Source: Nitrospirales bacterium (lineage in GTDB: Bacteria > Nitrospirota > Nitrospiria > Nitrospirales > UBA8639). Taken from it: a DNA stretch of 64,000 bases. Location: positions 3,200,001 to 3,264,000 of the forward strand of contig OY820905.2 of the NCBI GenBank assembly GCA_963555755.3, read 5' to 3'. Below the pieces are notes generated by a model, which was given only the letters and a program-made list of their open reading frames with translations, was not told the DNA's origin and did no database searches. Made by a program: the position numbers and the translations under genes. Below are positions 21,275 to 22,492 of the stretch, one piece after another. Position 1 is the stretch's first letter, and every line of letters starts with the position of its first letter.

Positions 21275-22249
21275 TCAGCAACCGTGATTAAAGTCAAGGG
21301 TTGAATATTGATTTGGGTTCCATGCTGTTTGGGTTTTGACCATCGTATTAAGAATGACCAGAAGTTTTCGCATACAGGCGGTGAGGGCCACTTTGGGTTT
21401 TTTCCCTTGTGCAATCAGGCGTTGATAAAATGTTTTGATGACCGGATTAAATCGTGATGCGGACAGGGCCGCCATGTAGAGGGCGGCGCGGACTTGGGCA
21501 CGTCCTCCCCAGACCCTTCGGTTGCCGCGAACGTTTCCGCTGTCGCGGTTTAAGGGGGCAACGCCCACCAGCGTGGCGATTTCTCTTCGGTTGAGCGTTC
21601 CGAGTTCGGTCAGGCTACTGAGGAGATTCATTGACAAGACGTTGCCCACCCCCGGCACACTTCGAAGGAGCGAATCTTTCTCTTTCCAGCCGGGGGTCTG
21701 TTTAATAATCTCGGCAATATGACCTTCGATTGTGTGGAGCCGTTTTTCCAGGGAGGCGATATGGGCGTTGATATCTTTGCGGATCCATTTGGCCGCTTGC
21801 TGGAGGTGGGTTTTTTCCGCCGTCTGCATGGCAAGCAACTGCCGTCGCCGTGTCACCAAGGCCGTCAATTCCTGGGTGGTGGCGTCTTTCATGGGCCGGA
21901 CCGCCGGCTGGATCGCGGCCCCGAAGCGAGCCAAGATCCGGGCGTCCAGGGCATCCGTTTTGGCCAGGGTGCCCATGGCCTTGGCAAAGTCCCGCACCTG
22001 ACGGGGATTCATGACGACCGCCGGCAACCCGGCGGTGGTTAAGGCCGCATACAAGAGTGTTTCCAGGCCCCCCGTGGCTTCCATCACGATGAGCGCGGGG
22101 TGAAGGGCGTGAAGCCGGTCCACCAGCGAGGCGATGCCGACATCGTCGTTGGCAACCGACCAGGGGATCGAATCGGAATCGTCCGCCACGTCCAATCGAG
22201 CTTTACAAATGTCGATACCGATAAACAATTCTGAGGATTTTGATTTCAT
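21275..22249 (-). CDS. IS110-family DEDD recombinase
   Basis: FIGID, VMEATG, KTDALD (DEDD tetrad); catalytic serine motif [21 protein letters not shown]. Confidence 0.96.
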
Positions 22250-22492
22250 CGCTCTGTCTCCCAACCTTGTTGATACGGGCTTGGTGTCCCAGGCAACCGT
22301 TCGGGTTCATCAGAGAACGGGCATGACGACCTGCGCTGAGTCACGGGCTGATTCCCATAGGGCAAACGGTCTATCATGCCAGGATTCACAATACCGTGAG
22401 GGTACAGCCTTTTCCCTACGTTGGCTATGCCCTCTTCAGACAAGAGGCAGCTCGGGTGAGTTGGCCTACAACCCTTCCTTGCATTATACAAG
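21277..22492 (-). mobile_element. IS110-family element inserted in a REP/MITE, with CT core
   Basis: Flanks rejoin to GACTCAG^GGCATGC as in empty copies; AG (CT on minus strand) at 21277-21278 and 22491-22492; no TIRs. Confidence 0.93.
22255..22478 (-). ncRNA. Putative IS110 bridge RNA
   Basis: Two stem-internal-loop domains whose loops match the target (GTTTGCCCT, GACTCAG) and the donor junction (ACGGTTGC, ACAAG); ends approximate. Confidence 0.85.

Follow-up and report, generated by a model that had tools for sequence, protein, structure and literature searches.

The element at positions 21277..22492 (minus strand) of the 64,000-nt stretch of Nitrospirales DNA analysed here (the window) is an intact, multi-copy insertion sequence of the IS110 group, similar to IS621. 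Its left end is likely the source of a bridge RNA by which the element's recombinase is directed to the 11-bp sequence TGCC-CT-GAGTC, located in a REP-like module that is itself nested in a MITE; we assign this reading a probability of roughly 0.9. With its recombinase and guide, the element is a further example of the known IS110 bridge recombinase system: it is not a new kind, and it leaves the known mechanism unchanged.

Including both CT cores, the element is 1216 bp in length (1214 bp as a circle). On the minus strand, the left end reads CT-TGTATAAT... and the right end ...ACGGTTG-CT, with GCATGCC and GAGTC as flanks; the junctions are GCATGCC/CT/TGTAT at 22492 and ACGGTTG/CT/GAGTC at 21277. 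An earlier note made from the sequence had reconstructed the target as GCATGCC-CT-GAGTC and the circle junction (donor) as ACGGTTG-CT-TGTAT, and these match the flanks and the ends read at 21277 and 22492, respectively. CT is present at both of the element's ends and the target is rebuilt without a scar: the rebuilt 14-mer occurs empty 72 times in the genome (0.04 occurrences expected).

The 4.6-Mb host genome contains 12 full-length copies of the recombinase gene and one 3' fragment. Genome-wide, 12 left junctions match the window copy exactly, as do 12 right junctions, and 11 copies have both ends. Comparison of the insertion sites, a check proposed in the earlier note, placed 13/13 copies (11 complete) at the same site. 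Eleven copies encode the full 324-aa protein with intact catalytic residues. The closest pair of copies differs by a single nucleotide and those of the main cluster by 1–26 nt, and diverged variants (37–107 differences) occupy the same site as the main cluster. One copy has a 6-nt deletion in its left end. In a diverged copy (G000:C1:2149022-2150215), the right end is missing, lost to another element present in multiple copies, while the 3' fragment (G000:C1:1572761-1573114) retains the right junction.

The recombinase gene (21275..22249, minus strand) encodes a protein of 324 aa, within the 300–460 aa of the IS110 family, with an N-terminal PF01548 domain and a C-terminal PF02371 domain that both score above the Pfam cut-offs. 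The protein also matches NF033542, the NCBIfam model of the IS110 RNA-guided transposase, at 209.6 bits (cut-off 140). Only two solved structures were matched: ISCro4 (PDB 9t56, E 1.9e-37, residues 8–316) and IS621 (PDB 8wt6, E 3.3e-35). D13, E57, D99, D102, and S237 (the last followed by G238) line up with the IS621 catalytic residues given in PMC11208158, in agreement with the earlier reading of the DEDD and SG motifs as intact. The open reading frame extends to the right core and the predicted RNA lies upstream of it, an arrangement different from that of the IS1111 group, in which the guide RNA is in a long right end, 3' of the gene.

The target belongs to an abundant host repeat. The 11-mer TGCCCTGAGTC (TGCC-CT-GAGTC) occurs empty 81 times in the genome and is part of a 24-bp REP-like module that is immediately internal to one of the terminal repeats of a hairpin MITE. 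The MITE is short and non-coding, has imperfect terminal inverted repeats, and is represented by 356 merged blastn loci (E<=1e-3; partial hits and IS-split halves counted). Its outer flank is mostly GGGA on the left (part of a longer repeat) and is variable on the right. At the window copy, the left half of the MITE (22493..22514, minus strand) comprises a type B terminal repeat and the left target GCATGCC; the right half (21091..21276, minus strand) comprises GAGTC, the rest of the 24-bp module, the hairpin core, and a terminal repeat with a type a continuation. The three empty targets reported earlier in the window are all present: an exact target at 11612..11627 (minus strand; core 11619-11620), a target with one mismatch at position 4 at 54468..54481 (plus strand; core 54475-54476), and an intact target (core 59692-59693) within an empty 146-bp MITE at 59669..59814 (plus strand). 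A search of 41 genomes detected the same module variant in 8, three of which have it at high copy number. The MITE also gathers small palindromic modules (CCTGTCCTGAGC..CGAAGG type, CCTACGCGAAGCCGCTTC type, and CCCCGCCTCCGCGAGGG type) at differing internal positions, a genome-wide pattern for which window 21091-21276 and G000:C1:1139046-1139200 serve as examples.

The module forms a weak CCCT..AGGG hairpin. Under the definition of tagged REPs (a palindrome of 20–40 bp with a terminal GTAG or CGTC/TGTC/CCTC tag), the targeted variant has neither GTAG nor any of the CGTC/TGTC/CCTC tags, and its sister modules contain TGTC. An attempt to name the REP family of the module failed, the accessible text of PMC3733652 having no CCTGAG or CTGAG passage. 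A lone 14-nt match to the donor (C1:735341) is without element context and was taken as chance.

Occupancy of the module follows the target sequence. Module-like sites with a perfect 11-mer include 13 occupied and 75 empty examples, whereas none of the 146 sites with 1–6 mismatches is occupied (Fisher p 1.7e-6; the 221 empty module-like sites are the sum of 75 and 146). A shared site of this kind could also arise if the copies had spread mainly as passengers of the MITE, moved by its helper enzyme, so that a common position would record one or a few ancient insertions instead of ongoing RNA-guided targeting. The retention of both MITE terminal repeats in most complete copies, the longer upstream repeat extension shared by several of them, and the small distances within the main cluster (1–26 nt) are as this account would predict. 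We nevertheless consider it quite improbable, as the central MITE loops around the copies fall into at least six variants, the diverged elements with 37–107 differences use the same site, and orthologs with other guides occupy other, matching sites. The differences in MITE loop between IS copies are consistent with several independent insertions, and RNA-guided targeting is the reading that we retain.

The predicted bridge RNA gene is the 241-nt non-coding left end (22250..22490, minus strand), which consists of a 5' region of approximately 110 nt followed by a target-binding loop (TBL) and then a donor-binding loop (DBL). The TBL (22320..22380, minus strand) has an outer stem (arms 22380-22368 and 22331-22320), an internal loop, and an inner GGG/CCC hairpin. 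It carries the left target guide GTTTGCCCT (22359..22367), of which TGCCCT (target positions 4–9) is likely the effective part, the right target guide GACTCAG (22336..22342), a full 7-nt complement of CTGAGTC, and the handshake bases CG (22334..22335), of which C can pair with G at donor position 7 (positions as defined in PMC11208158). The DBL carries the left donor guide ACGGTTGC (22293..22300), an exact match to the left donor, the right donor guide AT-(CA bulge)-ACAAG (22266..22274), which complements CTTGTAT with the same split geometry as the IS621 right donor guide in PMC11208158, and the handshake bases GT (22264..22265), of which G can pair with C at target position 7. All of these features are on the minus strand. 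The motifs listed in the earlier note (GTTTGCCCT at 22367-22359, GACTCAG at 22342-22336, ACGGTTGC at 22300-22293, ACAAG at 22270-22266, and the stem arms) are thus in place, with two amendments. The left guide, described as a 7/9 match, has the sequence and position given but probably reads only about 6 nt of target, its first G being scaffold and positions 1–2 showing no co-variation; ACAAG is present but is part of a 7-nt right donor guide that extends over a 2-nt bulge to AT (22274-22273).

The co-occurrence of these motifs is not expected by chance: TGCCCT, GACTCAG, ACGGTTGC, and ACAAG were found together in 0/5,000 dinucleotide shuffles of the left end, and three or more of them in 0.06%. 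Structural support comes from covariation and not from energy, because the whole left end and the DBL fold no better than shuffles. Folding of the left end, suggested in the earlier note as a check, gave a mixed outcome: the TBL alone is more stable than shuffles (z -2.66), but the whole left end (z -0.84) and the DBL (z -0.92) are not, and the single-sequence fold partly buries the DBL guides. Both loops are supported when 28 RNAs are aligned. In a two-loop structure of 25 pairs, 95.7% of 696 cells are paired and 15/25 pairs show two-sided changes, including 9 of the 13 pairs of the TBL outer stem; this level was reached in 0/500 shuffles, and slid controls gave 32–52%. RNAalifold returned nearly the same fold unprompted from the 28 RNAs, adding two weak pairs within the DBL loop.

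The 5' region ahead of the TBL is longer than that of most orthologs (20–60 nt). Its consensus fold, computed from seven close relatives only, is weak (-3.05 kcal/mol, with a two-sided change in 1/12 pairs). A resemblance to hammerhead or C/D-box RNAs noted by eye in this region was dropped on account of this weak fold and the lack of Rfam support. At gathering score, Rfam identified only tRNA in the window and gave no match to a bridge RNA (it may hold no such model); at E<=10 there were ten weak matches, the best of which, below its gathering score, was to the antisense of sX15 (E 0.31).

Guide-target co-variation was assessed in orthologs, as the earlier note had proposed. From 156 loci examined, 95 were parsed and 86 were unique; the 61 dropped loci lacked a TBL 3' anchor (23), a left end (16), an N-terminal match (13), a right end (7), a TBL 5' anchor (1), or a C-terminal match (1). 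Clustering at 90/80/70% DNA identity gave 60/28/18 clusters, each entering the comparison through a single representative; the relatives among them are not fully independent. The parsing anchors demanded a CT/AG core, so core pairing is assumed in the orthologs. One mis-anchored locus (L139) was kept in the permutation test; in the RNA alignment, L033 took its place. Genomes of Nitrospirales and Nitrospinaceae are the source of the closest orthologs that have a name.

Both target guides co-vary with their targets. Over target positions 3–7, the left guide matches at 4.28/4.21/4.17 of 5 positions in the 60/28/18 clusters, against 2.6–2.7 after permutation (the best of three registers was scored for both the real and the permuted data). 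The right guide, of which there are 17 distinct versions among 18 clusters, matches at 4.50/4.32/4.33 of 5 positions against 2.32/1.96/1.67. Neither set of values was reached in 10,000 permutations. Across 26 representatives, the left guide matches positions 1–7 at frequencies of 0.15/0.35/0.65/0.81/0.96/0.92/0.92 (baseline 0.26–0.61), making positions 1–2 uninformative, position 3 partial, and positions 4–7 strong. The host genome contains no site that matches all of the 9-nt left guide, so the guide of the window element is mismatched, at target positions 2–3. Since its leading G (G21) is also an invariant scaffold base (28/28 aligned RNAs), the effective target is approximately 6 + 5 nt. 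The left donor guide and the donor are identical in 25/27 representatives, which is weaker evidence as the donor varies little. For the handshake bases, the DBL base forms a Watson-Crick pair with target position 7 in 24/27 representatives (permuted mean 16.9; 0/20,000 permutations), and the TBL base does so with donor position 7 in 27/28, yet both of the latter bases are nearly invariant; this pattern is as reported for IS621 orthologs in PMC11208158. The architecture claimed in the earlier note (IS621-type, with a CT core and targeting of a host repeat) holds at the level of protein domains, of the 12 left and 12 right junctions, of the 13/13 insertion sites, and of guide co-variation.

In some orthologs, the left end departs from this organization: two copies in one Dehalococcoidia genome (L088 and L090) lack the TBL 5' arm and guides and keep the DBL, and they occupy the same repeat as their intact siblings. 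These copies may have been mobilised in trans or may have suffered deletion after insertion. Two other Dehalococcoidia loci (L035 and L092) show nesting, as read by eye: the ortholog is in a REP-like module that interrupts an apparent transposase coding sequence.

RNA pairing may be necessary without being sufficient. The structure of the target DNA, either the CCCT...AGGG hairpin or a MITE cruciform, could act as an additional gate that must be passed, in line with the report that ISPpu10 needs a target stem-loop (10.64898/2026.03.19.712850). All 13 insertions are in the MITE-embedded module, and many orthologs also land in hairpins of the CCTGAGC...CGAAGG type, so we regard such a gate as possible, if rather less than an even prospect. 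Weighing against it are orthologs with non-hairpin targets that show the same guide match. The GCA context (target positions 1–3) provides little discrimination: it is common to 72/81 empty 11-mers, and the probability that all 13 insertions would have it by chance is approximately 0.27. A requirement for GCA cannot be shown for this reason, and context and guide match are inseparable in the host genome.

With pairing by the guides as the preferred mechanism, a cycle can be proposed that draws in part on IS621. Read-through transcription would yield some bridge RNA and enzyme, as in IS621, where it is enough for excision (PMC13626964), and the element would excise as a 1214-bp circle, again by analogy with IS621. 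The circle junction would then form a promoter, the TBL would base-pair over approximately 6 nt with the left target and 7 nt with the right target, and the DBL would pair with the circle junction. As in IS621, a tetramer would exchange strands at the CT core via phosphoserine intermediates, with handshake bases favouring the post-exchange state. Upon insertion, the GA of the target completes the stop codon of the recombinase gene, as is seen in the sequence. The use of an abundant non-coding repeat as target likely offers many harmless landing sites.

The promoter predicted at the circle junction is of the sigma-70 type. Its -35 box, TTGACT (21292..21297, minus strand), is inside the recombinase coding sequence, at a position conserved in orthologs, and is separated by a 17-nt spacer across the junction from the -10 box, TATAAT (22483..22488, minus strand), which is preceded by TG (extended -10). 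Joining the ends would thus create TTGACT-N17-TATAAT, and a TTG-type -35 box with a TAnnnT -10 box is found at the same spacing in most of the 28 representatives. In the linear locus, a consensus scan upstream of the left end identified no minus-strand sigma-70-like promoter.

The analysis covered four of 24 listed public runs (two RNA and two of unrecorded kind), which contain the element as contigs only; the best of the runs may come from the sample of origin itself. No joint listed for these contigs corresponds to the circle junction; contigs drop rare variants such as circles. RNA-run coverage is flat over the element, and coverage of such kind cannot reveal a distinct left-end transcript. 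The four contig-level runs having given no circle junction or usable expression signal, activity is judged from copy number and near-identity (two copies 1 nt apart), and on these grounds the element is likely active. The opposing interpretation is that of a recently silenced relic, in which the guides can still be read and the element no longer moves. It could appeal to the missing circle junction and to the copies that have decayed (one without a right end, one 3' fragment, and one with the 6-nt left-end deletion). It appears improbable in light of the 11 copies with full proteins and intact catalytic residues, of the two nearly identical copies, and of promoter elements near consensus, and rare circles are what contigs drop.

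The recombinase gene by itself lacks a stop codon, a caveat for cloning: in all 11 complete copies, TGA is composed of the core T and the GA of the target. Most orthologs terminate within the -35 box, 19 nt earlier. Termination exactly at the core is seen in 12 of the 86 parsed elements, each of which has a GA target, and no element extends further. Among the 28 representatives, a stop-forming target is present in 5/5 core-ending elements and 10/23 others (Fisher p 0.03), and read-through on the circle covers 26–86 codons in the core-ending elements against a median of 14 in the others (p 0.015). These statistics are suggestive only, the samples being small and related. In the window element as a circle, the frame is computed to run 81 codons further, an open frame found in 2.5% of shuffles. 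The read-through frame is open for 80–102 codons in five close relatives and stops after 30 codons in one; open frames of 58–94 codons are also present in 5/23 control elements. We entertain as an unlikely possibility that, in this Nitrospirales lineage, the target-supplied stop is a built-in checkpoint, with the correct enzyme end produced only at CT/GA and the circle form extended by approximately 80 residues through the bridge RNA. Such a checkpoint would couple guide sequence to enzyme integrity, and the circle and integrated forms would encode different proteins. No report of a target-supplied stop codon was found in the main texts of the IS110 papers searched. The IS481-family elements ISLxc2 and ISLxx4 are similar in that the transposase stop codon is in the host insertion site (PMC2516522); they differ in being DDE transposons that duplicate their target and are not RNA-guided, so their stop has no link to a programmable guide.

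Among known systems, the element most closely resembles IS621 of E. coli in its DEDD RuvC and Tnp serine enzyme, its CT core, and its left-end bridge RNA with TBL followed by DBL (PMC11208160, PMC11208158). The right donor guide in two parts around a 2-nt bulge, the handshake bases, and the junction sigma-70 promoter (predicted here) are further likenesses, as is a natural target that is a repeat, with guide mismatch tolerated (PMC11208160). The differences are its own target (TGCC-CT-GAGTC) and donor, a natural right target guide of 7 nt compared with 4 nt in IS621, for which an engineered 7-nt guide improved specificity (PMC11208160), a 5' region of approximately 110 nt where the IS621 TBL starts at nucleotide 34 (PMC11208158), the lack of a non-coding right end, the stop codon completed by the target, and the Nitrospirales host. 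ISCro4 is the best solved-structure match, yet it is distant in sequence, and the comparison covered its protein. ISPpu9 and ISPpu10 of Pseudomonas putida are also multi-copy IS110-family elements in REP sequences, and ISPpu10 has CT at each end, as here; ISPpu9 circles are described as having no hybrid promoter and both elements as having antisense RNAs (PMC12288879; 10.64898/2026.03.19.712850). The IS1111-group seekRNA elements ISEc11, ISPa11, and ISKpn4 belong to the same enzyme family, and ISPa11 targets REPs; in these elements, the guide RNA is encoded downstream of the gene and the inverted repeats are sub-terminal (7–17 bp by the criterion for the group), in contrast to the upstream RNA observed here (10.1101/2024.04.26.591405).

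PMC11208160 already documents the targeting of REPs, the tolerance of guide mismatches, right guides of extended length, and orthologs predicted in their thousands, and an IS110 element that targets REPs and has a readable bridge RNA conforms to the published norm (PMC11208160; ISPpu9/ISPpu10). A literature search for "bridge RNA" with "Nitrospira" returned one unrelated review only. What the element adds to this body of work is an ortholog of the bridge recombinases that is likely active, naturally has a right target guide of 7 nt, and has dozens of empty targets of identical sequence in the genome where it resides; it is a usable entry for genome-editing ortholog screens. As a natural example, it also illustrates nested parasitism clearly: an IS within a REP-like module within a MITE.

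The flanks of the window copy are mismatched. Among the 81 empty sites, continuation a accompanies left-repeat type A in 64 and continuation b accompanies type B in 11, and none combines B with a, which is the arrangement at the window copy. This copy also has a divergent patch, with 16 differences in one 100-column bin of the 5' part of the gene, and contigs of a public run carry the same divergent variant. From these patterns, the window copy likely arose by recombination of two copies from different loci, either through host recombination or through the recombinase; no reciprocal partner for its flanks was identified among the 13 copies. The mismatched MITE halves suggest that these elements also act as rearrangement points of the host chromosome.

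Several genes neighbour the element. An OprB-family porin gene (window 22514-23858, plus strand) begins at the MITE end, inside an apparent signal-peptide coding region, and is without its own ATG; its frame is open back through the IS left end (antisense strand) to 22134. Since the homolog in another genome (G003) has a longer N-terminus, the start of this gene has likely been lost. On the minus strand, a Gp49-like and HTH_37 gene pair, likely a toxin-antitoxin system, is located at 19581-20260, and a two-frame ISAs1-family transposase at 25340-27087.

The weak Rfam match to sX15 (RF02234), an sRNA of Xanthomonadaceae, covers window 22248-22390 (plus strand), antisense to the TBL and DBL, at 23.5 bits over the full length of the model. 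The reverse complement of the sX15 consensus contains CCCGAACAGTTGC, a motif found at the left donor guide of many orthologs. For sX15, PMC3300014 reports asX7 as antisense partner on a plasmid, and one Stenotrophomonas chromosome with 10 homologs. Judging by this resemblance, sX15 and asX7 may be an unrecognised IS110 antisense/bridge RNA pair.
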